A DNA stretch of 64,000 nucleotides from Candidatus Deferrimicrobiaceae bacterium (GTDB lineage Bacteria > Desulfobacterota > Deferrimicrobia > Deferrimicrobiales > Deferrimicrobiaceae), in NCBI GenBank assembly GCA_963792415.1, contig CAWBVY010000001.1, forward strand, positions 256,001-320,000, written 5' to 3'. Positions 40,447 to 51,017 of this stretch are shown here, piece by piece (positions within the stretch are counted from its first letter, which is position 1; every line of letters starts with the position of its first letter). The notes under the pieces were generated by a model, which saw only the letters and a program-made list of their open reading frames with translations, did not search any database and was not told the DNA's origin. The translations under genes and the position numbers were made by a program.

Positions 40447-42445
40447 TTATTCGCTCGGGCGGAAGCGGTTTCCCTGTCCGGCTCGCGACTCTCCGGGCCA
40501 GGCATCGGGGGGGCCCTGTGCCACCGGCTCAGGGTGATCGACTGGGCCGCGGCGGCGAGGCCGAAGGAGAGGACGCTCAACACCAGCGGAACGCCCTTGG
40601 TTCCCAGCAGGTCGGAGGCGGTCTTTACCGCTCCCACCGCGATGACCAGGATGGCCACGTTGCGGATCTCCCGGTTGCGGGCTCGGAAGGCGTAGAGGCC
40701 AAGCCCCAGGGCGGCCAGGTTGATGATGATCGACTGGGTGCACTGGAAGACCTCCGACCCTCCGGGCCCGGCGGGAAGGATGATCCAGGCGGCGATCACC
40801 CGAAGGAGGAAGAAGGAACCGGTCAGGGCGGCAAGGAGAGTGATGGCGCCGCTCAGATCCTGCTTGTCGTAGGTACCGAAGAAGGGGGAGCGGGCGGGCG
40901 GGGGGTGGCGCCGGCACCAACGGTAATGGACCAGGGCCGCCGCCGCCAGCGCGGCGCTGGGGACCGTTCCTGCGATGGGCGAGGCGGGGATCCCGTGGGC
41001 CAGGAAATAGTTGGCCAGAGACACGACGGCGTAGACCTGGAGCAGGTAGGAGGTCACCCGCACGGCGCCGCTCCCCCATCGATCGGAGAGGACGGCCACG
41101 CCGAGGGCCGCAGCCCCGAGAACGGGGGCCGCCGGTGCGCTGCCGAGGGCGGCGGGGAGGGCCAGCCCCAGGAGAGCGGCCCCGGCGACGACGAAGGAGT
41201 TGGTGCCGGGGACGCCGTCGATTTTCCGCATCGCGAGCCAGAAGGCGGCCCCGACGTGGACGAGTGCGAACAGGATCGCCACCAGGTTGAGCGCGAGGGC
41301 GCTTCCGTCGGCCTCGCTCACGACGACCCTGGCGGCCAGGTACGACCCGACGGCGCCGATCGTCGGAAGGCAGAAATCGAAGACGGAAACCTTCACGTCG
41401 CGGCTCCGGACGATTCCCAGGAGGGCGATCGCCAGGAAGGCGGCGCTGGCGGCAGCCAGAACCGGCAGGAACCACCCGGGGGCCAGGGTAGCCGCCGCGG
41501 TGGTCCTGCGGGCGACGACGGCGGCGAGCCGCATCCCCCAGAGAAGGAACATGGCCAGCGTGACGAGAAGCACGGTCCAGCGAAGCCAGCCGCAGCGCTT
41601 CAGGGTCCCCGCGTAGTACCCCAGGAAGTTGGCCGTCAGCAGGATCATGAAAAGGTAGGGGAAGAACGGATTCGGGTAGTCGATCGCCGCGCCGGCCAGG
41701 CACATCCCCAGGGTGCCGACCGACACCGGGAGAAAAACCGAGAACCGGCGGCTGACGAACGCCATGCCGGCGCCGGTGGCCATCAGCGTCCAGTAGGCGG
41801 GAACGAGGGGGAGCGACCCGAGGCGGGCGTGGGTCTCGACGACAATGGTCGACATGAGGATCGCCCCGCAGGCGACGAACACCGGGGCCAGGGAACTCTC
41901 TCGCCGATACTGGTACCAGCCGGCCACCATGAGGGAGGCGGCGTAGCCCATCCCGAGCCCCATGCCGAGGAGGGGCGCGACGATGCCGCTGTCGGTGATG
42001 GTCCGCAGGATCAGGGCGACAACCATCAGGAAGCAGAGGGTCGCCAGGCGGGGAAAGAGCGACGCCCGGCTCGCCCAGTGGATCACCTCGTCGGAGAGGC
42101 TGTCGGACTCCCCGGCGGCTGCCTTCCCTCCGGAGCCTTGGCGGCGATGGGCATGCCCTCCGGAGCCTTGGCGGCAATGGGCATGCCCTCCGGAGCCTTG
42201 GCGGCAATGGGCAAGCCCTCCGGAGCCTTGGCGGCCATGGGCAAGCCCTCCGGAGCCTTGGCGGAGGAGGGCTCCCCGGGACGCGGGAGAATCGTCTCCG
42301 GGCGGGCCGTGGACGCGGCAGCCGATCGGTCCCGGCCGGGCGCCGTCCGTTGTCCCTCGAGTTCCGCGACCCGCCGGCCGAGGCTCTCGACATGCTCGTA
42401 CAGCCGGTCGACCTTCTCCTCGATCGTCAGTTTTTGATTGCGCAT
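40447..42445 (-). pseudogene. Large polytopic membrane protein (DUF2339-like), frameshifted near a tandem-repeat insertion; 3' end uncertain
   Basis: Coiled-coil N-terminus (MRNQKLTIEEKVDRLYEHVESL) lies in frame 42083..42445; the TM body (EVIHWASRASLFPRLATLCFL...) continues in a different frame (39378..42503). Confidence 0.6.
42126..42272. repeat. Five tandem 30-bp copies of a palindromic element (CCCTCCGGAGCCTTGGCGG...)
   Basis: Units start at 42126, 42156, 42186, 42216 and 42246; they translate to AAKAPEG(L/M)P(I/M) on the minus strand. Confidence 0.95.
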
Positions 42446-42603
42446 GCGGGTATCCCCGTGGCTCTGCCGCGGATGTCGGTGCGGGCGGGAGGAGAGCCTT
42501 CATCTATAACGCAGTTTTAATATAATATCAGCGGCGATTGCCGGGATGGCAAGCGAATTCATCCGCCCGGGCGCAACATATTTCCACCGGGACCGGCATC
42601 ACG

Positions 42604-42643
42604 AAAAAAAAGGGAACCCGGCGCGATGCCGGGTTCCCTTTTG
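42604..42643. terminator. Rho-independent terminator downstream of sodA
   Basis: A8-GGGAACCCGGC-GCGAT-GCCGGGTTCCC-TTTT. Confidence 0.9.
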
Positions 42644-42675
42644 AAATTTCGACGGTTCTACCTTGCAGGCGAGAT

Positions 42676-43287
42676 CTACGCCTTGGCCTTCTTGAAGTTG
42701 TCCGCCACCTGCGCCCAATCGACGGTGTTCCACCACGCCTCGATGTACTCGGGGCGTCGGTTCTGATACTTCAGGTAATAGGCGTGCTCCCAGACGTCGA
42801 GGCCGAAGATCGCCTTGCCGCCGTCCATGACGGGATTGTCCTGGTTCGCGGTCGATTCGACGGCGAGCTTTCCGCCACGGATCAGCAGCCACGCCCAACC
42901 GGAACCGAATCGCGTTGTCGCGGCCTGGGCGAAGGTTTTCCTGAAATCCCCGAAGTTGCCGAACGTGGCTTTGATGGCGTCGGCCAGTTCTCCCGACGGC
43001 TCGCCGCCGCCGCCCTTTTTCATGACCTTCCAGAACATGGAATGATTCAAATGGCCGCCGCCGTTGTTGCGCACGGCGGTACGAACGGCCTCGGGCACTT
43101 TGCCGATCTGCGCGAGCAACTCCTCGACCGGAAGTTTCTGAAGCTCGGGGTGGGATTCGAGAGCCTTGTTGAGGTTGTTCACATACGCCCCGTGGTGCTT
43201 GTCGTGGTGAATCTCCATCGTCTTCGCGTCAATGTACGGCTCGAGCGCGTCAAAGGCGTATGGAAGCGGAGGTAAATTGTATGCCAT
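42676..43287 (-). CDS. sodA: Mn/Fe superoxide dismutase (Mn-type signature)
   Basis: [37 protein letters not shown]. Confidence 0.93.
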
Positions 43288-43453
43288 CGGGTAGATCTCC
43301 TTTCCTTCCGGCGCGTGACCGGCAGCATCTTTAACAATACGATGCGTCGAGGACACGGGAACGTTTCCCCCCGCGAGGATTTTTATCCTCCGCACGCTGG
43401 GGGGGGTGCCGCCTCGTCGTCGGGGGGTCGCGTTCCATTCCCGTTGAGGGGAT

Positions 43454-43615
43454 ATGCCCTCCTACGCCCCGCACATATGGAAATGCAGGCGCTTCGGGGC
43501 TACGGAGGGCATCCTTCGCCAGAGATGGCTCGCCATCCGTCTTGTCCTCCGGATCCTTGGCGGAGGAGGAAGCTCGGAACCTCGGGGTTACGATTGCGGT
43601 GAGGAGCGAAGGATG
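43454..43615. repeat. Compound palindromic (REP-like) element
   Basis: ATGCCCTCC...GGAGGGCAT (43454-43512); CATCCTTCGC...GCGAAGGATG (43510-43615); internal CCTCCGGATCCTTGGCGGAGGAGG. Confidence 0.75.
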
Positions 43616-43645
43616 GTGCCGAACAGGCGTCCGAACCGGACCCCT
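43614..43645 (-). repeat. Highly degenerate tRNA-Leu 3'-end copy (possible distal att site)
   Basis: TGGTGCCGAA matches the first 10 + strand bases of the tRNA 3' end, then ...CGAACC; the rest has diverged. Confidence 0.4.
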
Positions 43646-43774
43646 GTGGTGGAGGAATATCGCTTTACTGCCTTATCGTTGTCCCGGGCATGGGGGGGGG
43701 GGGGAATGCCTGAAGGCAGATACCACCCCGATGCGGGTCAACCTCGGCGCCGATCAACGACCTTCAACTGCGAT

Positions 43775-44194
43775 TCAGGTCAATCGGATTCCCTTCTCTT
43801 TCAGGAAAGCGGCGAATGCCTGATCCACAACCCGTATGTGGTTCCTCAGCCAGTTGCCCAGGAAGGTGCCGATGGCTTCGCTCAATTTTTCGGTGACACC
43901 CTCTTCGTTGAAATCCTCGATCAGGTGGTCCAGCGTGCCTTTCAATTCCTCGTGCCTGGCCCTGTGGTCCTCCAGTCCGGAGTAACCGGTTTCCGACATG
44001 GATTTCTCTTCCGTCGAGAAATGGAACTGGGTGTAGTTTATAAGGAAATCCAGCGTGCTCGCTATTTGCGGCATGCCTCGACGAGCCTCTATCGCGGCTT
44101 GCACGTTTTGTATATGCCCGATCCACTTCTTATGCTGTTCGTCGATCAACTCGACGCCGATCGAGAGACTTTCGTCCCAGGTTATCCTGCTCAT
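43775..44194 (-). CDS. Bacteriohemerythrin
   Basis: WDESLSIGVELIDEQHK, HFSTEEKSM, H..RH, WLRNHI..VD. Confidence 0.92.
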   Translation of the reverse strand: MSRITWDESLSIGVELIDEQHKKWIGHIQNVQAAIEARRGMPQIASTLDFLINYTQFHFSTEEKSMSETGYSGLEDHRARHEELKGTLDHLIEDFNEEGVTEKLSEAIGTFLGNWLRNHIRVVDQAFAAFLKEKGIRLT

Positions 44195-44309
44195 GCTCCG
44201 GTTCTCCTGTCCGTGTTTTCGGCGACAACGCGCGGCATGAATCGCCTACTAACGATATACAGGAATCCGGGGCCCGTCAACGGTATCGGCACCCCATGGC
44301 AAAGCCCGC

Positions 44310-44452
44310 GAGCCACTTTTTCGCCGCCCGGGCCGTTTTCAGGAAAAAAGGGATTCCGGCGGGAAGCCGAAATCCCGGCTTGCGTTTGAGATGAGGAGTG
44401 AAGGCCGGTGCCGAAGGCGGGATTTGAACCCGCACGGGTTTCCCCACCACCC
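44310..44452 (-). repeat. att-like unit: tRNA-Leu 3'-half copy (44406-44452) plus terminator/AGCCAC motif (44310-44376)
   Basis: CGGTGCCGAAGGCGGGATTTGAACCCGCACGGGTTTCCCCACCACCC is near-identical to the tRNA; GAGCCAC...AAAAAAGGGATTCCGGCGGGAAGCCGAAATCCC. Confidence 0.9.
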
Positions 44453-44461
44453 GTCGAGGTT

Positions 44462-44914
44462 CTACCGCCCGGGGGCTTTTATTGCCTCAATTTCTGATGG
44501 GGAAAGTTCCTTTTTCCTCTTCAGCGACCAGTTTCCAATCCACTTCTTGAGGATCTCCAGGTTCGCGCTTCTCTCCGCGTCAGTGCTCCCGAGATAGGTG
44601 TGCATGTTGCCCGGTTTGCCGTCCTTGGTGTTCTTCCCGTCGTCCAGCCTTCTCATCAGGGCGCCAGCGTCCGATCCCTTGACCACCACCATCAGGTGCT
44701 CGTAAGTGTCCAACCTCGGTCCCTTCATCTTCTTCTTGAACCCTTCCTTATCCCGCCCGAACTCCTCCATCGTGGGCGACTCCGACCCGTGGCAGGCGAT
44801 GCACCGGTTGGCGATTATCCCCTTGATGTCTTTCTCGTAGGTCACGGCCTCCCCGGCAAAGACCGTAACTGCCACCACCGTGATTATGAACGCCGCAATA
44901 ATCCCCCTGCTCAT
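44462..44914 (-). CDS. Periplasmic monoheme cytochrome c
   Basis: AAGGAGGT RBS; signal peptide; CIACH; distal Met in PGNMH. Confidence 0.85.
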   Translation of the reverse strand: MSRGIIAAFIITVVAVTVFAGEAVTYEKDIKGIIANRCIACHGSESPTMEEFGRDKEGFKKKMKGPRLDTYEHLMVVVKGSDAGALMRRLDDGKNTKDGKPGNMHTYLGSTDAERSANLEILKKWIGNWSLKRKKELSPSEIEAIKAPGR

Positions 44915-45055
44915 TCCCCACCTCCTTCGGTACCTGGTATTTATTATTGATCTTGACAGACCAATCCGGATTTCACCACGGGAAAGATTAACACCTCGTC
45001 CATTCGCCCTCGGGACAGACATCGCTGTGGCATCATTCGTCAGTTACCCCCCCGG

Positions 45056-45188
45056 GAGCCACAAATCAGCCACCCGGGCCGCTTTCAAGAAAAAAGAGGG
45101 CCTGGCGCGAATCCAAAATCCCTTTAGTTATTCGAATGGTGCCGAAGCGGAGACTCGAACCCTCACGGGTCTCCCCGCCACCCCCTCA
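45056..45188 (-). repeat. att-like unit: tRNA-Leu 3'-half copy (45137-45188) plus AGCCAC-repeat/terminator motif
   Basis: GAGCCACAAATCAGCCAC...AAAAAAGAGGG...AAATCCCTTT, then TGGTGCCGAAGCGGAGACTCGAACCCTCACGGGTCTCCCCGCCACCCCCTCA. Confidence 0.9.
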
Positions 45189-45209
45189 GAACGGCAGCGT
45201 CGGAGAAAC

Positions 45210-46241
45210 TTAGAGTGCATCCCGATCGTGAGCTGCGCACAGATGAGTCTCGAACGTTACATGGACCAATCCGAGTTCCTCGGGCAGGAACCTGTAGTAG
45301 GCGTCAGGATCCAACGGGCGGGCGGAGATGATCGCGATCTCCGCCGCATAGATTCCCGGGCCTACGGACCACACATGCATGTCGGAGACTCGATTGTCCC
45401 CCTCCGATTCGATCGCGTTCCGGATCGCCTCTACCACCTCGCGCGGGGCCTGCATATCGAGAAGTACGCGGGCCGACGACCGAAGCAGCCCCCAGGACCA
45501 GCGGGTCACGAGCGCCGCACCCACCAGACCCATGAAGGGATCCAGCCACTTCTGTCCAAGGTATTTGCCTGCGAGGAGAGCAAAGATCGCAAGAACGGAG
45601 GTCAGGGCGTCCGCAAGCACGTGAAGATAAGCGGATCGGAGGTTGTGATCCTTGTGCTCATGGGGGATCGAGGGATGTTGGACATTGTGACGGTGATTCT
45701 TCCCCTCGCCGGCATGGCGGGGATGCTCGTGGGGATGATTGTCGTCCTCACCCTGTTTCCGGTTCCCCCTTCCGAGAGAATGGACGTGTCCGCCGAGGAT
45801 GGCTAGGCACGCACCGTTGACGATCAGACCGATGATCGCGACGAGGATCGCCTGGTCGAACCCGATCGCCACGGGCGAAATGAACCGCCGGACGCTCTCC
45901 CAGGCCATGGCAAACGCGAACAACGCCAACGTCGATGCGCTCGCGAACGCCGCCAGCGAGTTCACTTTCCCCGTACCGAAGTTGAAGCGTGAGTCGCTGG
46001 CGTGGATGCGGGTGTAGCGGTAGGCGAACACCGAGATGGCGAGCGCCGAGGCGTGGCTCCCCATGTGGAGACCGTCGGCCAGGAGCGCCATCGATCCGAA
46101 GGCGAGTCCCGCCACGATCTCGACGACCATCGTCAGGACCGTGACGATGCTGACGATCAGTGTGCGCTTTTCGGCGGACCTTCTCACTTCCTGACCAAAC
46201 GTGTGGTCGTGCACCCAGCGTTCAATGGATTCCGTGTGCAT
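45210..46241 (-). CDS. dmeF: CDF-family Co/Ni efflux transporter with His-rich loop (DmeF-like)
   Basis: HDHTFGQ, SMALLADGLHMGSHA, FGTGKV, His-rich loop, DHNLRSAYLHVLADALTS. Confidence 0.88.
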   Translation of the reverse strand: MHTESIERWVHDHTFGQEVRRSAEKRTLIVSIVTVLTMVVEIVAGLAFGSMALLADGLHMGSHASALAISVFAYRYTRIHASDSRFNFGTGKVNSLAAFASASTLALFAFAMAWESVRRFISPVAIGFDQAILVAIIGLIVNGACLAILGGHVHSLGRGNRKQGEDDNHPHEHPRHAGEGKNHRHNVQHPSIPHEHKDHNLRSAYLHVLADALTSVLAIFALLAGKYLGQKWLDPFMGLVGAALVTRWSWGLLRSSARVLLDMQAPREVVEAIRNAIESEGDNRVSDMHVWSVGPGIYAAEIAIISARPLDPDAYYRFLPEELGLVHVTFETHLCAAHDRDAL

Positions 46242-46349
46242 ATCGATGTCCTTGACTATTTGAGGCAGCGTCCGGTCCCAGCGCTTCGAGATCGGCATGA
46301 TCAGAATACCGGAATATCCGTCGCTTCTTTACACCGCTAATGACCCGCA

Positions 46350-46480
46350 AGCCACAAATCAGCCACTCGGGCCGAAAAAACGAAAAAAGGGACTCCGGAG
46401 GAAAGCCGAAATCCCTTTAAGAATTGCCATGGTGTCGAATGGGGGACTCGAACCCCCACGGGTTTCCCTACCGCTGCCAT
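46350..46480 (-). repeat. att-like unit: tRNA-Leu 3'-half copy (46430-46480) plus AGCCAC-repeat/terminator motif
   Basis: AGCCACAAATCAGCCAC...AAAAAAGGGACTCCGGAGGAAAGCCGAAATCCCTTT, then TGGTGTCGAATGGGGGACTCGAACCCCCACGGGTTTCCC. Confidence 0.9.
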
Positions 46481-46483
46481 CGC

Positions 46484-46870
46484 CTAACAGCAGCCTGCCG
46501 CACGACCCGCAGTTGTTCGTATCAGGCGTTCCGGAATGGCTTCGTATACTGTCCCTTCTTGCTCCACCGTCCGACATGCGACATCTTCTTCTCCGGTCAG
46601 GTCGCAGCAGGATGCGCACGAACTCTCCCCTCCGCTCGCCCCCGGGACAAGGGACTCAATGGGAATCCCGTTGAAGAGGATCTGATTAGATTGCCGGATC
46701 TCACCCGCCCCCAATAACGTTTCCTTGAATGCCACCCGGATGCCGCTCTCCTCGCACTCGCTGGTCAGCACCTTAACCACCTCGGCTAGTGTTCTTCCAG
46801 TATCCTCGCAGCGAATGCAAGTTGCCCCTTCCTTGTCCAGATGCCTCCACTCTATCTCCAAAGTCTTCAT
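46484..46870 (-). CDS. DUF2703-like Cys-rich protein
   Basis: GGAGGTG RBS; LEIEWRHL..TCIRCEDTG, SNQILFNG, CASCCDL..CRTVE. Confidence 0.75.
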   Translation of the reverse strand: MKTLEIEWRHLDKEGATCIRCEDTGRTLAEVVKVLTSECEESGIRVAFKETLLGAGEIRQSNQILFNGIPIESLVPGASGGESSCASCCDLTGEEDVACRTVEQEGTVYEAIPERLIRTTAGRAAGCC

Positions 46871-47303
46871 CCTAATCACCTCCCACCAGGACGGTTAACA
46901 GATGCCCCACAATCAGGATACACCCACCACCCACACAAGATGAGGGAAGTTAGGCCACAACGCAATCCACTCCTATATGACCGAATTAATGGAGAATATC
47001 GCGCACGATGTCTTCCGGATAAAAAGACGGAAATCCCGCCATCAATTTCAAATACATCGGGAAAATTAGATTAAGCGGGTCCCAATTCTGGCTGCCATCA
47101 TGTTCGATGGGGTATGCAAACCCCAAGACGATTATGATCTACGTGTATTTGGGGAAATCGTGCATTAGCTAGCAGAGTGAGAAACTCAATGGTACTCGCT
47201 TGCTCCAGTGACAAAGCCTCTATGATGGTCGTGGGCCGGATTGTGTGATTGCCTTCGGGCGGCGACTTTTCCGGCTTTCGCAATCCGGCCCGTTTACCTC
47301 AGT

Positions 47304-47762
47304 CTACATTCCCCCCTCGGATTTCTTCAGCTCCCCCTTAGCCCATTTTTCCAAAGGTTTCGGGTTCGGTTTGTACCAGTGGGATTTATCGGTCCAGACG
47401 TAGGTGGCATGGATTTTGTTTCCTTGGACCGTTCCCTCCCAGTGAATCTTTCCTTTCTTCTCGCTGGTCGTGTCCGCCACGAACTTTATGGTGTCCCCCT
47501 CTACCGTAGCCATATAAGGAGCTTCACTGAAGCCGTACTGGTCGCACTCGACCGAACGGAATTTTCCATCCTTGAAAACCAGCGTATCCGTTCCTTTCGC
47601 CTCCTTCCCCTTTTCCCCCTGCTGGACCACGAAGGTCTTCCCGTCCAGCGCACCACCCGCCGATTCATGATGTGCCCCGATTGCCAACCTCCCACCACCT
47701 GCCACAAGCAGAAAAACCCCTAAAACCGAAAAAATCCGCTTCAAATAGCCTGTCGATCCCAT
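47304..47762 (-). CDS. Exported hypothetical protein
   Basis: AGGAGG RBS; signal peptide; LDGKTF..DTLVFKDGKFRSVECDQYGF. Confidence 0.7.
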   Translation of the reverse strand: MGSTGYLKRIFSVLGVFLLVAGGGRLAIGAHHESAGGALDGKTFVVQQGEKGKEAKGTDTLVFKDGKFRSVECDQYGFSEAPYMATVEGDTIKFVADTTSEKKGKIHWEGTVQGNKIHATYVWTDKSHWYKPNPKPLEKWAKGELKKSEGGM

Positions 47763-48011
47763 ATCCCGTTTCCTCCTTTAATAGTCGCCCAATTTGTGTT
47801 TTATTTCAGCCACCTTCCCGTTAGACAGAAATAGATCCGCAATTTTCAAAATTAGATTCCTCCAAACTTGATAATGATTCTTTGGAGATAAAAAATCCTG
47901 TCGCGATCATACATGGAGTGACCAGCCCATATTCGAATCGGTCCGTTGAACGATAAACTCTCTCGTTCCCCATGCTTCCCTTGAGGGTATTGGCTTACCG
48001 CAGCAGTGCGA

Positions 48012-48065
48012 TGGTGCCGAAGGGAGGACTCGAACCCCCACGGGTCTCCCCACCACCCCCATCAA
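48012..48065 (-). repeat. tRNA-Leu 3'-half copy (att-like), without the AGCCAC/terminator motif
   Basis: TGGTGCCGAAGGGAGGACTCGAACCCCCACGGGTCTCCCCACCACCCCC. Confidence 0.9.
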
Positions 48066-48367
48066 CACCATCCCCGCCCCCCCCTTTCGCCCCGAAAAAC
48101 GACGATATTTGCAAGGGGTTTGCGATACATCACGAGCGAAGATCCTGGTCACCCACCCCAAGCCCCAGTGCTGCGCGGTTCTCTCTTCCGTGAGCGCGGA
48201 GATCGCCATGCCAGGGCTTACGCACCCTCTCGACGGTGACGTCCGCGTCCTCAGAACTTCCTTTCCCGCAGCACCGGCAGGCAGGTTCCCGCATCAAAAT
48301 ACTGATCCTTCCGGCGACCTCCCGTCGCAGGACTCATAATGGTCCTCAGGACAAGGGGGTAACGAAG

Positions 48368-48808
48368 ATGATGAGAACGTTAGTCGGAACCGTACTGCTG
48401 TTGCTGGGGGCGTCCGCCTTCGCCGCGGAGAGCTCGGACATGCCGAAGGTGCTCTCGAACGCGGACTGGTCGAAGATGGAAACCGTCACCGTGACGATGA
48501 CCGAATACGCCTTCTCGCCTTCCCGTGTTCTCCTGAAGGCCGGGACACCGACGAAGCTCGTACTCCGCAACGAGGGGAAGGAGCACCACTACTTCGTCGC
48601 GGAGAAGTTCTTCGGTACGATCGCCACCCGCAAGGTCCAGGGGTCGGACGGGGAGGTGAAGACGCCGCTCCTGACAGCGGCGGAGGTGTACGCCGGGAAA
48701 AGTCTGGAGTGGTTCCTGGTGCCCACGGAGAAGGGGACGTTCGACCTGGTGTGCACCGTCAAGGGACACGCCGACCGCGGGATGAAGGGGACGATCGAGG
48801 TCCGCTGA
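48368..48808 (+). CDS. Periplasmic cupredoxin (type-1 copper protein)
   Basis: Signal peptide; EYAFSP; NEGKEHH; C-x4-H-x4-M (CTVKGHADRGM). Confidence 0.85.
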   Translation: MMRTLVGTVLLLLGASAFAAESSDMPKVLSNADWSKMETVTVTMTEYAFSPSRVLLKAGTPTKLVLRNEGKEHHYFVAEKFFGTIATRKVQGSDGEVKTPLLTAAEVYAGKSLEWFLVPTEKGTFDLVCTVKGHADRGMKGTIEVR

Positions 48809-48830
48809 CCATCGAGGGCTGTACACCCAC

Positions 48831-48900
48831 GAGCCACAAATGAGCCAGTCGGCCCCTTTTTAGAAAAAAAGGGACTTCGGCGGAAATCCGAAATCCCTTT
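48831..48900 (-). terminator. tRNA terminator hairpin plus AGCCA direct repeats (prototype of the cassette-end motif)
   Basis: GAGCCACAAATGAGCCAG...AAAAAAAGGGACTTCGGCGGAAATCCGAAATCCCTTT. Confidence 0.8.
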
Positions 48901-48911
48901 CATTATTGCGA

Positions 48912-48996
48912 TGGTGCCGAAGGCGGGATTTGAACCCGCACGGGTCTCCCCACCACCCCCTCAAGATGGCGTGTCTGCCAGTTCCACCACTTCGGC
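48912..48996 (-). tRNA. tRNA-Leu(GAG)
   Basis: Reverse complement GCCGAAGTGGTGGAACTGGCAGACACGCCATCTTGAGGGGGTGG...GGGTTCAAATCCCGCCTTCGGCACCA; 85 nt, long variable arm, encoded CCA. Confidence 0.96.
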
Positions 48997-49178
48997 GCGT
49001 TGCTGCGGAGAAATATAGTATCCACCCTCCCGTCGAAAATCAATATGGAGAGTTCGGCGAGCGGCAGGCGCGACTCCGGGTTCCGCCCATCGATGTCCGG
49101 TTGAACGTTTTTCTTCCAAAATCGACCGCATCCCTGTACTCTTTTCCGGGAAATCTCATACCTTAGCGGGGGACGGTC

Positions 49179-51017
49179 ATGGCGGAAGAAGAAGCGCCGC
49201 GTCGCGGCGGCTTGTACCGGAACGTAATCAGTCTTGCCGGGGCGCTCATCTCCGGGGGAAGCATCCTCCTCATCATCTTCGCGCTCGCGCTCGAGTACAG
49301 CGCCAAGCGGCCCAGCCCCTACATCGGCATCTTCACCTACATGCTGTTCCCGATGTTCTTCGCCCTGGGCGCCGCCGTCTTCCTGTACGGGATGCGGCAC
49401 GAGAGCCTGCGCCGGCGCAGCGCGCAGCGCGAGGATGCGCTCGCATACCCCCTGGTCGACCTGAACATCCCGAGGCACCGGAAACGGTTCATCTACGTCG
49501 TGCTCGGGGGAACGTTCCTCTCCGTGTTCATGGCGTTCGTGACGTACAACGCCTTCCTGTACACCGAGTCCGTCCCGTTCTGCGGCACCCTGTGCCACAC
49601 GGTGATGCAGCCCGAATACACGTCCTACCTCGCATCCCCCCATGCGCGGGTGGCCTGCGTGGATTGCCACGTCGGTCACGGCGCCTCCTGGTACGTCAAG
49701 GCGAAGATCTCGGGGCTGCGCCAGGTGCTCGCCGTGGCGACGGGATCGTACCCCACCCCCATTCCCACCCCGATCGAGAACCTGCGCCCGGCGCGGGAGA
49801 CGTGCGAGGAGTGCCACTGGCCCGACAAATTCTTCGGGACCCAGCTGATGCAGAATCCCCACTTCCGGTACAACGAGGCGAACACCGCGGAGCAGATCAG
49901 CCTCGGCGTGAAGACGGGGGGCGGCAGTTCGTCGCTGGGCGGGACCGCGGGGATCCACTGGCACATGATCATCAAGAACCGGGTCAGCTACGTCGCAACG
50001 GACCGGCAGAAGCAGGAGATCCCGTATCTCGAGGTTCGCGACGCGCAGGGGAACCTGGAGGAGACGTACACCAGCCTCGACTACAAGGGGACCCAGGAGC
50101 AGCTCGCGACCCTCCCCAAGGACATCATGGACTGCATGGACTGCCACAACCGGCCGACGCACATATACCAACCCCCGGACACCGCCGTGGACCGCGCCAT
50201 GACCACGGGGCTCATCCCCCGGACGCTCCCATGGGCAAAGAAGGTGGTCGTGGACGCCCTGGTCCGCGAATACCCCACGACCGAAAAGGCCCACGAGGGG
50301 CTCACCGCCGAGATCGAGGGGTTCTACCGCCAGAAGTACCCCTCCGTCTTCCAGGCGCGCAAGGCCGACGTGGAGAAGACGGTCGCCCAGGCGATCGCCA
50401 TCTTCGACCGCAGCGTCTTCCCCGACATGAAGGTGAACTGGAAGACGTACACCTCCAACATCGGGCACCGGAACTGGCCGGGCTGTTTCCGCTGCCACGA
50501 CAGCCGGCACGTGTCCAAGAAGGGGAAGGTCCTCAGCATGGGGTGCACGGAGTGCCACACGATGCCGGAGCGGGGACCCCTCATGCCGCTGGGATCCGTT
50601 TCCCCGGACAGCAAGATGCCGTGGCACCCCGTGCAACTGCAGGGGAAACACGCCCGGATCCTGTGCAACCAGTGCCACTCCGCGGGCTACCGACCGCCGT
50701 CCGAGTGCGCCGAGTGCCACAAGTTCGACACCTCCGCCCCGATGATGAAGATGGCGTGCACGGACTGCCATCAGAAACCGGGGGAGGCGAAACCGTACAC
50801 CGCGTGCAAGGAGTGCCACGACACGGTGCGTGGGCTGCACACCAAGGGTGGACACCCCGAGGCCGCCTGCATGGAGTGCCACAAGCCGCACGAGTGGGCC
50901 GTCGTTGGGCGCGACCCTTGCCTTGCGTGCCACAGCGACATGAAGGAGCACAACGCCGCGAAGGGCGCGTGCGTCTCCTGTCACTCGTTCCGGGAGGGGA
51001 AACAGGCGAAGAAGTGA
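49179..51017 (+). CDS. Inner-membrane multiheme cytochrome c (NapC/NirT- or ImcH-like) with extended heme tail
   Basis: Three N-terminal TMs; one CX3CH (CGTLCH) plus 12 CXXCH motifs; LRPARETCEECHWP; GIHWH. Confidence 0.88.
   Translation: MAEEEAPRRGGLYRNVISLAGALISGGSILLIIFALALEYSAKRPSPYIGIFTYMLFPMFFALGAAVFLYGMRHESLRRRSAQREDALAYPLVDLNIPRHRKRFIYVVLGGTFLSVFMAFVTYNAFLYTESVPFCGTLCHTVMQPEYTSYLASPHARVACVDCHVGHGASWYVKAKISGLRQVLAVATGSYPTPIPTPIENLRPARETCEECHWPDKFFGTQLMQNPHFRYNEANTAEQISLGVKTGGGSSSLGGTAGIHWHMIIKNRVSYVATDRQKQEIPYLEVRDAQGNLEETYTSLDYKGTQEQLATLPKDIMDCMDCHNRPTHIYQPPDTAVDRAMTTGLIPRTLPWAKKVVVDALVREYPTTEKAHEGLTAEIEGFYRQKYPSVFQARKADVEKTVAQAIAIFDRSVFPDMKVNWKTYTSNIGHRNWPGCFRCHDSRHVSKKGKVLSMGCTECHTMPERGPLMPLGSVSPDSKMPWHPVQLQGKHARILCNQCHSAGYRPPSECAECHKFDTSAPMMKMACTDCHQKPGEAKPYTACKECHDTVRGLHTKGGHPEAACMECHKPHEWAVVGRDPCLACHSDMKEHNAAKGACVSCHSFREGKQAKK

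Follow-up and report, generated by a model that had tools for sequence, protein, structure and literature searches.

Integration at tRNA genes is textbook knowledge, and integrative elements bring with them a replacement half fitted to the tRNA of the host. In tandem tRNA islands, such as those recorded by Islander/TIGER at the anticodon-loop 'A' sublocation, an intact tDNA is accompanied by displaced 3' fragments in the same orientation, the crossover takes place in the anticodon loop, the 3' half is supplied by the element, and newer insertions push older ones away. A similar arrangement is found in a gene array located in a stretch of 64,000 nucleotides of Candidatus Deferrimicrobiaceae bacterium, an uncultured inhabitant of sediment (GenBank assembly GCA_963792415.1, contig CAWBVY010000001.1, positions 256,001 to 320,000), which we refer to as the window and whose own numbering is used below. 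Here, an intact tRNA-Leu(GAG) gene is followed by six units of 0.7-1.6 kb, each with one or two genes, which are separated by copies of the 3' half of this tRNA. The explanation that we favour, with some though by no means full confidence, is that small non-autonomous cassettes were integrated serially in the anticodon loop with the help of an integrase from rare autonomous elements, and that the array of this genome is now frozen.

Several other described systems share some of these features. Sedentary chromosomal integrons are rich in toxin-antitoxin cassettes and, like the tRNA-Leu locus and its relatives, have small, mostly single-gene units of ~1 kb with one site of ~130 nt each, a single insertion point, and a cargo that differs between close relatives and includes toxin-antitoxin pairs. 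In contrast to the integron attC, which is at the 3' end of a cassette, the site here is at the 5' end of the unit, the units have upstream regions of their own, and no recombinase resides beside the array. An intI gene was not found in the genome, whose four recombinase-like open reading frames (ORFs) score 18-131 bits against NCBIfam cut-offs of 265-435 and lie away from the array; nor were attC sites, the repeats being tRNA 3' halves with a terminator hairpin and a direct repeat. The array had been described as integron-like in an earlier reading of the DNA, made by a model from the letters and translated ORFs only (the original prediction); this likeness is one of architecture, not of mechanism or family. 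The pdif/Xer modules of Acinetobacter plasmids are likewise recombinase-less gene modules placed between sites for a tyrosine recombinase supplied in trans, but they are plasmid-borne and use inverted pairs of host XerC/XerD sites, whereas the sites in our array are chromosomal direct repeats derived from a tRNA and the likely enzyme is a dedicated, element-borne integrase family.

To be counted by Islander, an island must contain an integrase and be 2 kb long or more, and among the 3919 islands recorded arrays of three or more occur just 4 times, according to the accessible text of the paper (PMC4383910). The array has the intact tDNA and the same-strand displaced fragments that Islander looks for (five 3' fragments downstream), but its units lack an integrase by both PF00589 and profile searches and, at 731-1582 nt from start to start, fall below the range of 2-200 kb; integrase-less units shorter than 2 kb, and hence arrays made of them, are filtered out by design. 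Closer in composition are cis-mobilizable elements (CIMEs), att-flanked units without integration genes that are stacked by site-specific accretion (PMC5704250, accessible sections); each unit of our array likewise has two att (attachment site) copies, corresponding to attL and attR, and no recombinase. As described in the same sections, CIMEs are decayed integrative and conjugative or integrative and mobilizable elements (ICEs/IMEs), measure several kb and are moved in cis with a neighbouring ICE (PMC5704250), while here we see single-gene units, a common compact att-plus-terminator module, edges that are fixed across genomes, and units that far outnumber any autonomous partner. No ICE was found adjacent to the array, where conjugation and relaxase genes were not looked for in depth. 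The tycheposons of Prochlorococcus, which occupy seven tRNA sites, have partial tRNA repeats between successive elements, degenerate remnants in islands and ecologically useful cargo; their definition in the accessible part of the preprint (bioRxiv 10.1101/2020.12.28.424599) calls for a recombinase of their own and, usually, a replication module, and integrase-less material is presented there as remnants rather than as a class of ~1-kb units that recur with a conserved att module. A tRNA-specific recombinase at one end is absent from the units of our array. A literature search that did not cover supplementary tables, including those of islands, returned no account of ~1-kb integrase-less cassette arrays at tRNA genes and none of mobile elements in Deferrimicrobia.

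The anchor of the array, tRNA-Leu(GAG) at 48912-48996 on the minus strand, is the only tRNA that ARAGORN finds in the window (Rfam tRNA, 48.9 bits), and the GAG isoacceptor is single-copy among the 56 tRNAs of the genome, a metagenome-type assembly of 2.84 Mb in 11 contigs that is G000 in our numbering. Its own 3' half (48912-48960) is the first att copy. A repeat search returned a five-member family of the 46-nt tRNA 3' half, which consists of the tRNA itself (48913-48958) and four displaced halves, also on the minus strand: 48013-48058 (87% identity; nhmmer 6e-14; T loop TTCGAGT; no module behind it), 46431-46476 (78%, with a fully compensated T stem, GGGGG/CCCCC), 45138-45183 (83%; nhmmer 2e-12) and 44407-44452, the closest copy, 98% identical to the resident tRNA. 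Identities within the family (78-98%) refer to this last copy, itself 98% identical to the tRNA's own 3' half, and a profile made from the copies gives nhmmer E-values of 4e-12 to 4e-17, so that the repeats are far beyond chance. The intact tRNA and the four clear copies had been named in the original prediction and are confirmed here, as is the limit of homology that it drew at about the anticodon loop, where the similarity of the displaced halves to the tRNA begins. Its fifth copy, placed at 43614, is real but weaker than the rest. Within the region 43497-43650 (minus strand; degenerate half plus 'type B' flank, repeat family D11), just the last ~10 nt of the tRNA are left of this copy (~43614-43623 of ~43614-43650), and a flank of ~30 nt is 79% identical to the one behind copy 44407. 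A sixth vestige, a degenerate T-arm with the acceptor end, lies within 42568-42675 (minus strand) directly after the stop codon of a superoxide dismutase (SOD) gene. All the 3' halves, the vestige and the modules described below have one orientation.

Behind the tRNA, behind copies 46431, 45138 and 44407 and at the SOD vestige there is a module of ~85 nt (families D1 and D2), in which a hairpin of 13 bp, with a T run, is followed by a direct repeat at an 11-nt period (GTGGCTnatttGTGGCT). The module, SOD as a sixth unit and the half-fragments at many other tRNAs go beyond what had been predicted. Module a (48826-48911, minus strand; nhmmer 2.2e-22) shows all the parts, namely the terminator hairpin, the T run and the direct repeat CTGGCTcatttGTGGCT, with a terminator-like site at 48889-48872 and a covarying stem. 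Modules c (46344-46428) and d (45051-45133), both on the minus strand and both with GTGGCTgatttGTGGCT, were recognized by the D1/D2 families, nhmmer and stem alignment. Module e is preceded by a 'type B' spacer of ~30 nt (together 44304-44406, minus strand; terminator-like site 44376-44350), and the terminal module closes the array together with the SOD vestige (42568-42675, minus strand; nhmmer 1.8e-12; terminator-like site 42642-42608). The hairpin is terminator-like at four module copies of the array, the stem carries compensatory double changes at 3 pairs among 24 copies from this and related genomes, and an exact 5-mer is repeated at the 11-nt period in 95 of 127 modules. Because of these compensatory changes, the terminator-like calls and the periodic repeat, the module is, as far as can be judged from its sequence, functional DNA. 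No Rfam family matches it, the tRNA alone passing that search, and a search of viral contigs with a pattern of att plus module gave no match. A sigma-54-like reading of TGGCTnatttgTGGCT was dropped, as both half-sites change together to GGTCCC in 5 of the 24 aligned modules.

The displaced halves carry marks of a foreign origin. The T arm of the resident tRNA is GCGGG TTCAAAT CCCGC, while copies 48013 and 46431 have GGGGG TTCGAGT CC(C/T)CC, also written GGGGGTTCGAGTCC(C/T)CC. In our comparison set of 77 genomes of the class, which represent 19 genera and include 28 genomes of the same genus and 13 of the sister genus g16, the latter type is found in 12 of the 13 sister-genus genomes and in 14 of the 19 genera and is rare in the own genus (5 of the 27 other genomes). 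When the four clear halves were joined in silico to the resident 5' part, ARAGORN recognized a tRNA in all four cases, three times tRNA-Leu(GAG), the fourth half having been sliced 1 nt out of register. The foreign T-arm types and the intact in silico tRNAs fit imported halves and make local duplication unlikely; the displaced halves thus appear to have arrived with the cargo and not to be local duplicates. The composition of the array is foreign as well: its G+C content is 57.4% against 66.8% for the window, and the G+C content at third codon positions (GC3) is 0.63-0.88 in six cargo genes (SOD left out) against 0.81-0.92 in three flanking core genes.

The same build is widespread in metagenomes. 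A pattern that spans the end of the tRNA and the start of the module retrieved at least 120 metagenome contigs (455 kb), in which the intact tRNA-Leu(GAG) is present in 20 contigs and displaced halves, 126 altogether, in 95. The start of 88 of these 126 halves coincides with the anticodon-loop position of the profile. The 36 distances from att to att range from 608 to 5971 nt with a median of 1080; 19 of them do not exceed 1100 nt and cluster at 0.83-1.1 kb, and 31 do not exceed 2500 nt. An integrase-like ORF, defined as a match at E <= 1e-3 to a profile built from 13 ORFs (one of which, G000:C6:567609-568628 on the plus strand, is ambiguous), is present in none of the 36 complete units, and one integrase remnant was seen by phmmer only among the first 80 loci. 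Stop distances, orientation and cargo were tabulated for the same number of loci, 80 of the at least 120, and at 44 of these the gene closest upstream is co-oriented, while at 28 it has the opposite orientation. The cargo of their complete units includes two kinds of Gp49-like toxin with a helix-turn-helix (HTH) antitoxin, HicA/HicB, a single-Cache exported protein, cytochrome P460 and isochorismatase-family proteins.

The edges of individual cassettes can be followed from one context to another. The Gp49/HTH cassette, ~83-84% identical in the BLAST pairs tested, is found beside the intact tRNA in genome G062 and behind other units in contigs L122 and L112. What these three contexts have in common begins with the 3' half, includes the module and both genes and extends to 7-8 nt past the stop codon, and a three-way alignment shows unrelated sequence beyond both ends. 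Contigs L130 and L142 are 96% identical and their homology breaks at the start of att, upstream of which lies the 5' half of the tRNA in one contig and foreign DNA in the other. Such fixed edges would be the expected signature of a defined unit, made of a 3' half, a module and genes, that recombines at the anticodon loop. Most cargo types of the array itself, i.e., PccH, the cation diffusion facilitator (CDF) protein, hemerythrin, cupredoxin and the exported protein, recur beside a 3' half or module elsewhere.

In the own genus, 13 loci were mapped between tRNA-Leu(GAG) and the gene of a DUF2339 membrane protein. Both flanks are conserved and the interval between them is hypervariable, extending from ~1.7 kb in G002 to ~37 kb in G024 with different cargo; gene order, whose identity in all relatives the original prediction had named as a sign against gene capture, is therefore not conserved. 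Six relatives (G004, G017, G001, G008, G012 and G005) have 1-3 displaced halves that bound units of 1.1-4 kb with other cargo, and most displaced halves of relatives begin at (C/T)TGAGG. A metagenome contig, L167, is 94-95% identical to the window and has DUF2339, SOD, hemerythrin and module e in common with it; from 44376 towards the tRNA the two sequences differ, as would be the case if new units are inserted beside this gene. The 3' half with its module bounds units in other genera likewise. The intact tRNA of G062 is followed by five units on a contig of 54.6 kb (G062:C58), and att copies are ~1-3.6 kb apart in G052, G079, G050, G056 and G072. There are also orphan arrays away from any tRNA-Leu gene (G002:C3, G002:C6 and G021:C1), and in G002 a 1.8-kb unit of three genes is present in two arrays at 91.7% identity, its upstream end being at the att start in both. 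A cassette of 220 aa that is 93-95% identical between G052 and G031 was not used as proof of transfer, as it lies on contigs of 4.4 and 2.3 kb that are possibly mis-binned.

In the array of the window, the spacings of 900, 1582, 1293 and 731 nt from start to start, the cargo identities given by Pfam and the short distance between cargo stop codons and the next tRNA fragment in three units all agree with the original prediction. Unit a encodes an exported cupredoxin of 146 aa (48368-48808, plus strand, opposite to the tRNA; PF13473 at 2.7e-09 on the longer ORF 48236-48808), whose start was read from the sequence and which has a signal peptide; a 72% homologue occupies the same position in the same orientation beside tRNA-Leu in L157. 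Two genes belong to unit b, one for an exported 152-aa protein that matches no Pfam family (47304-47762, minus strand) and has 47-66% homologues in arrays of G002, G021, G050 and L193, and the other for a DUF2703 protein (46484-46870, minus strand; PF10865, 3.8e-33), which stops ~4-8 nt before the next tRNA fragment. Unit b also contains A+T-rich non-coding stretches (46900-47300 and 47780-47960) and has no module behind its tRNA fragment; it may be composite or partly deleted. The cargo of unit c is a DmeF-like CDF metal efflux protein of 362 aa (45210-46298, minus strand; PF01545, 1.7e-37) with a stop codon 22 nt before the next fragment and homologues flanked by modules in G021:C1, G007:C72 and L196. 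Unit d carries a PccH-type monohaem cytochrome c (44462-44914, minus strand; PF22297, 4.8e-45), which ends ~10 nt before the next fragment and has homologues of 77-80% identity in L222 and L166, placed between a 3' half or module and a module. A hemerythrin of 139 aa is encoded by unit e (43775-44194, minus strand; PF01814, 2.2e-13), with homologues beside att sites in L190 and L214, and an Fe/Mn SOD of 203 aa from its MAYNL start by unit f (42676-43287, minus strand; Sod_Fe_N and Sod_Fe_C). SOD has the last place also in G005, G014, G011, G021, G012 and L167; in G002 and G015 it is located elsewhere. Upstream regions and a terminator seem to come with each cassette, in place of one promoter common to all.

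The flanks of the array consist of core genes, with a multihaem cytochrome and DinB at one end and, at the other, the DUF2339 gene, which starts at 42503 beyond the end of the array. This gene encodes 1041 aa here and ~615-650 aa in relatives, and its 5' part contains about five tandem 30-nt repeats (42121-42270), a 24-nt piece of which appears again within the flank of the fifth fragment (43546-43569). The flank itself, ~130 nt at 43497-43623, is 86% identical to the DNA directly after tRNA-Leu(CAG) (G000:C6:455160-455287); DNA of the same type follows the intact tRNA-Leu(GAG) in G001. It contains two hairpins and is possibly a small RNA or an alternative att arm.

The sequence data can be brought together in the following scheme. 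The anticodon loop of tRNA-Leu(GAG), a single-copy gene, would have undergone site-specific recombination again and again, and the stack of six cassettes would be the result. Each cassette has the form of a tRNA-Leu 3' half, the ~85-nt module and one or two genes. In a circular cassette, the crossover with the resident anticodon loop would take place at the 5' edge of the tRNA half; the incoming 3' half would complete the tRNA, and the previous 3' half would be shifted one step away together with everything behind it. Because each insertion would displace the earlier units in this way, the newest unit is expected to adjoin the tRNA and the oldest, that of SOD, to be the last. The cassettes encode no recombinase and would thus depend on a tyrosine integrase of ~360 aa that rare autonomous elements would provide in trans. 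The array itself contains no integrase, as noted in the original prediction: PF00589 has no match at 298-305 kb of G000:C1, all 7 matches of the genome lying elsewhere, and the integrase profile finds nothing in ORFs of at least 40 aa across 42000-49500.

A candidate for the enzyme exists at the same site in related DNA. Four long integrase ORFs were found by the profile in the metagenome contigs, and three of them, those of L134, L191 and L192, form one tyrosine family with lengths of 358-410 aa and mutual identities of 60-74%. An intact integrase gene of this family is convergent to tRNA-Leu(GAG) in L192 and in G076:C9, where its 3' end overlaps the terminator behind the tRNA, and L192 has a Xis-like ORF of 90 aa upstream of the integrase. 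Besides the intact copies of L191 and L134, there is another one in G071:C4, 1.2 kb from an att site. The integrase faces inward in these autonomous relatives, which are rare: the intact cognate gene is present in 2 of the 77 genomes of the class and in 3 of the at least 120 contigs. The integrase frames of L192 (440-1672), G076:C9 (L273:1420-2541) and G021 (L047:3851-4393) run antisense into the terminator module, and those of L192 and G021 continue through the tRNA 3' half, so that integration would change the C-terminal tail of the enzyme. A conserved P arm of ~145 nt precedes 38 sites in 31 of the at least 120 metagenome contigs, about a quarter of the displaced halves, and is also present before copies in G005, G017, G001, G008, G062, G056, G050 and G046. 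AAATCT(A/C)C motifs recur within this arm, whose end reads GGGCTGC|TTGAGGG; together, the P arm, the core and the module look like a complete attP. The units of G000 and the Gp49/HTH cassette end a few bases past the stop codon without a P arm. It is possible that the enzyme needs just the tRNA half and the module, that two lineages of elements share the site, or that the units without a P arm are fixed derivatives.

Two other enzymes were considered and rejected. A 340-aa Xer-like gene of G000 (C6:355753-356775) is present in 18 of the 27 other genomes of the genus and in almost none outside it, and is absent from the array-bearing G004, G008, G001, G062 and G052, which speaks against it as the enzyme acting in trans; the XerD and XerC-like genes of G000 are ordinary. 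In L118, a P4-type integrase of 426 aa stops 18 nt before the Leu half. Its specificity for the tRNA-Leu site is unsupported, P4-type relatives being found at tRNA-Ser, ssrA and tRNA-Met in 7 of the 77 genomes and at other tRNAs in 38 viral contigs that have neither the Leu att nor the module.

A number of observations weigh against integration of small cassettes as the source of the array. In the metagenome contigs, 38 of the 126 displaced halves start later than the anticodon-loop position, and of the 44 upstream genes found co-oriented at 80 loci, just 13 have their stop codon no more than 35 nt from the fragment; some fragments in relatives are truncated to 11-40 nt. The excised circles that the original prediction called for were not seen: a terminal overlap, the sign of a circle, is present in none of the at least 120 metagenome contigs, and neither an excised circle nor an empty-site junction was found in the contigs of public runs, which are short and give no reliable joint. 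The autonomous elements carry a GGGCAGATT-type repeat where the cassettes have GTGGCT, so that the GTGGCT repeat is at most a putative site of the integrase; it could also serve another integrase as an arm site or, lying ahead of the cargo, act in regulation or as a promoter. In the searched sequence of G000, which is all but 72,000 bases of the genome, no cognate integrase is present and the best match is a recombinase of 29% identity; the P arm is found nowhere in this genome at E <= 0.01, and its units may be deletion derivatives that are now unable to recombine. The hemerythrin gene, which in G014 adjoins the intact tRNA and encodes a protein with 90% amino acid identity to that of G000, is ~92% identical at the nucleotide level over the gene and ~65 nt upstream, with unrelated flanks and no flanking att or module in common, meaning that genes also move by other recombination. 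Remnants of the integrase family, mostly C-terminal, lie in or beside the arrays of relatives, and some units are accordingly decayed autonomous elements. The array of G000, whose searched genome sequence contains no cognate integrase and whose units have no P arm, is probably frozen at present. Joints such as 44376>48011 and 48040>48957 were rejected as excisions, since their sides are shorter than 30 nt with extra letters between them, and are read as att sites of other organisms.

These remnants are the basis of the strongest alternative, according to which the units are leftovers of larger integrase-bearing islands, a CIME-like graveyard, and never moved as single-gene cassettes. We regard this as unlikely but deserving of serious attention. 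An integrase pseudogene with stops, frameshifts and an internal gap, a 48% relative of the family, is located directly behind the tRNA of G021, in a unit of 7.5 kb that is full of ORFs with low GC3, and 30 residues of its protein are found at a contig edge of G020. Matches of at least 48% identity occur in 12 of the 77 genomes, most of them partial. The remnants of G062 and G056 are confirmed by PF00589; that of G079, beside the tRNA, is 91-92% identical and matches by profile and BLAST but no Pfam family, and further pieces are present in G018, G065, G023, G064, G011 and G049. A PF00589 search of ten relatives, genome-wide, has a match at the locus in G021 alone. The absence of the P arm from the units of G000 and the truncated fragments fit decay as well, and so do published precedents: the accessible sections of one paper describe a route from site-specific integration through decay to a CIME and then accretion (PMC5704250), and islands with integrases in fragments and partial tRNAs scattered about are described in the available part of the tycheposon preprint (bioRxiv 10.1101/2020.12.28.424599). 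Random deletion, however, predicts broad sizes and ragged edges, whereas 19 of the 36 spacings fall at 0.83-1.1 kb, the 88 halves begin exactly at the anticodon loop, and the toxin-antitoxin unit ends 7-8 nt past its stop in three unrelated contexts. Nor would decay lead one to expect that none of the 36 complete units has an integrase-like ORF, that intact cognate integrases are so rare, or that cassettes with imported T-arm types are present in the own genus. Decay demonstrably occurs at this site, yet it leaves the size peak, the sharp edges and the recurrence of units unexplained; the integrase remnants of relatives show that it occurs, not that the units of G000 arose by it.

Serial integration of non-autonomous cassettes thus accounts for features that decay does not, and the interpretation given in the original prediction is supported in part, having withstood the refuting conditions that the prediction itself had set. 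Minimal non-autonomous cassettes agree with the ~1-kb integrase-less units that dominate the metagenome contigs and with the fixed boundaries of the Gp49/HTH cassette, less so with the remnants and the missing P arm. As to an integrase acting in trans, its cognate family exists at the site but was not found in the searched sequence of G000. Integrase remnants, which had been proposed as the mark of ordinary decayed islands, are absent from inside the units of G000 and present in the arrays of several relatives.

Homologous recombination is an improbable source of the array. In this scenario, the ~130 nt of the 3' half and module would serve as portable homology for RecA-type shuffling or gene conversion after DNA uptake, with no integrase involved. 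The repeats are long enough and 70-98% alike, gene order shared by relatives is often interrupted where the tRNA, the hairpin or the module ends, and both the orphan arrays away from tRNA-Leu and the hemerythrin gene exchanged without att fit such a process. It would not, however, fix the upstream edge in the anticodon loop, as seen in 88 of the 126 halves, or import foreign T-arm variants along with the cargo, and the divergence of neighbouring repeats (15-30%) is high for efficient exchange.

An assembly artefact, in which strain variants with one island each were chained through the common repeat, can be practically set aside despite the metagenome-type assembly of 11 contigs and the alternative versions of a tRNA-Thr island that begin contigs C2 and C3 and are also on C1, meaning that strain variants are present in the data, since the repeats differ by 2-22% and have little exact sequence in common at a stretch, a public-run contig matches one internal junction at 100% identity, and the same build is found on long contigs elsewhere (five units on the 54.6-kb G062:C58; many metagenome contigs). 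The assembly artefact that long reads might reveal according to the original prediction is likewise at odds with repeats that are divergent copies flanking different genes and not a collapsed repeat. The junction was found among 20 public sequencing runs, the best of which contains 0.31 of the sampled words; four of them, X1-X4, were compared with the window as short Logan contigs only, and the parts that these leave uncovered are uninformative. A contig of X2 reproduces 44983-45418 with no mismatch, from the start of PccH through the module and fragment 45138 to the end of DmeF, and X2 may have been sequenced from the source sample itself. In the public runs, the whole array is not spanned by any single read or contig.

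Many other tRNAs of G000 have displaced half-copies 0.2-10 kb away that bound small sets of genes; this is a habit of the whole genome, and nowhere is it denser than in the Leu array. Such regions are found at C9:3546-12261, C9:132218-136246, C8:2094-8572, C1:187859-192632, C6:566120-568923, C6:60688-63598, C7:4750-5919 and C7:214139-217716. The 5' halves of tRNA-Arg are repeated up to three times, and 3' halves occur at tRNA-Lys, Thr, Ala, Arg(CCT), Arg(ACG), Arg(TCT), Met and Ser. At C9:132060-132251, a 5'-half fragment of tRNA-Arg is followed within ~30 nt by a tRNA-Leu 3' half and a Leu-type module, so that a Leu-type cassette sits inside the tRNA-Arg(TCG) array; another Leu 3' half is located 1.6 kb from tRNA-Asn (C4:132401-132448), and a module stands behind a tRNA-Lys fragment (C8:5189-5266). 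The tRNA-Thr(CGT) gene is found on C2 (1776-4437), on C3 (90-4864) and at C1:187859-192632, followed by islands of 2.6 and 4.7 kb with pieces of an integrase pseudogene (C3:333-470 and C1:188111-188320); these islands look like strain variants of one locus within the assembly. The ambiguous member of the integrase profile, at C6:567609-568628 between two 3' fragments of tRNA-Ala(GGC), is a 339-aa ORF with a partial PF00589 match of 37 bits, and on the opposite strand rve transposase domains (62 bits; IS3/IS481 by NCBIfam) lie in an ORF of 300 aa. Metagenome contig L162 likewise has PF00589 and rve on opposite strands.

Going one step further, we tentatively propose, without placing the odds in its favour, that an integron-like platform of gene capture, the second of its kind and independently evolved, operates in Deferrimicrobiaceae (candidate phylum MBNT15 lineage). 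In such a platform, the anticodon loop of tRNA-Leu(GAG) would have the role of attI, and a portable site of ~135 nt, made of the tRNA 3' half, the terminator and the repeat, that of attC. An environmental pool of self-expressed cassettes of ~1 kb, with toxin-antitoxin pairs and periplasmic redox and metal proteins, would be shuffled between genera, and the integrase would be non-resident, visiting on rare autonomous elements. Other tRNAs of G000 (Arg, Lys, Thr, Ala and Met) may host parallel systems.

Since standard tools demand an integrase and at least 2 kb per island, they discard integrase-less arrays of shorter units by design. At the site described here, most units found throughout a bacterial family are of this kind, with fixed edges, a conserved att-plus-terminator module and recurring cargo. 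If the units are remnants only, they represent an unusually ordered mode of island decay. If, on the other hand, the cassettes do form circles and borrow an integrase, gene capture in cassette arrays would not be unique to integrons, and the system would be a compact natural 'landing pad plus cassette' arrangement of one integrase, one tRNA gene and a 135-nt site. It would also explain how single genes for redox, metal-handling and toxin-antitoxin functions are swapped among these small-genome sediment bacteria.

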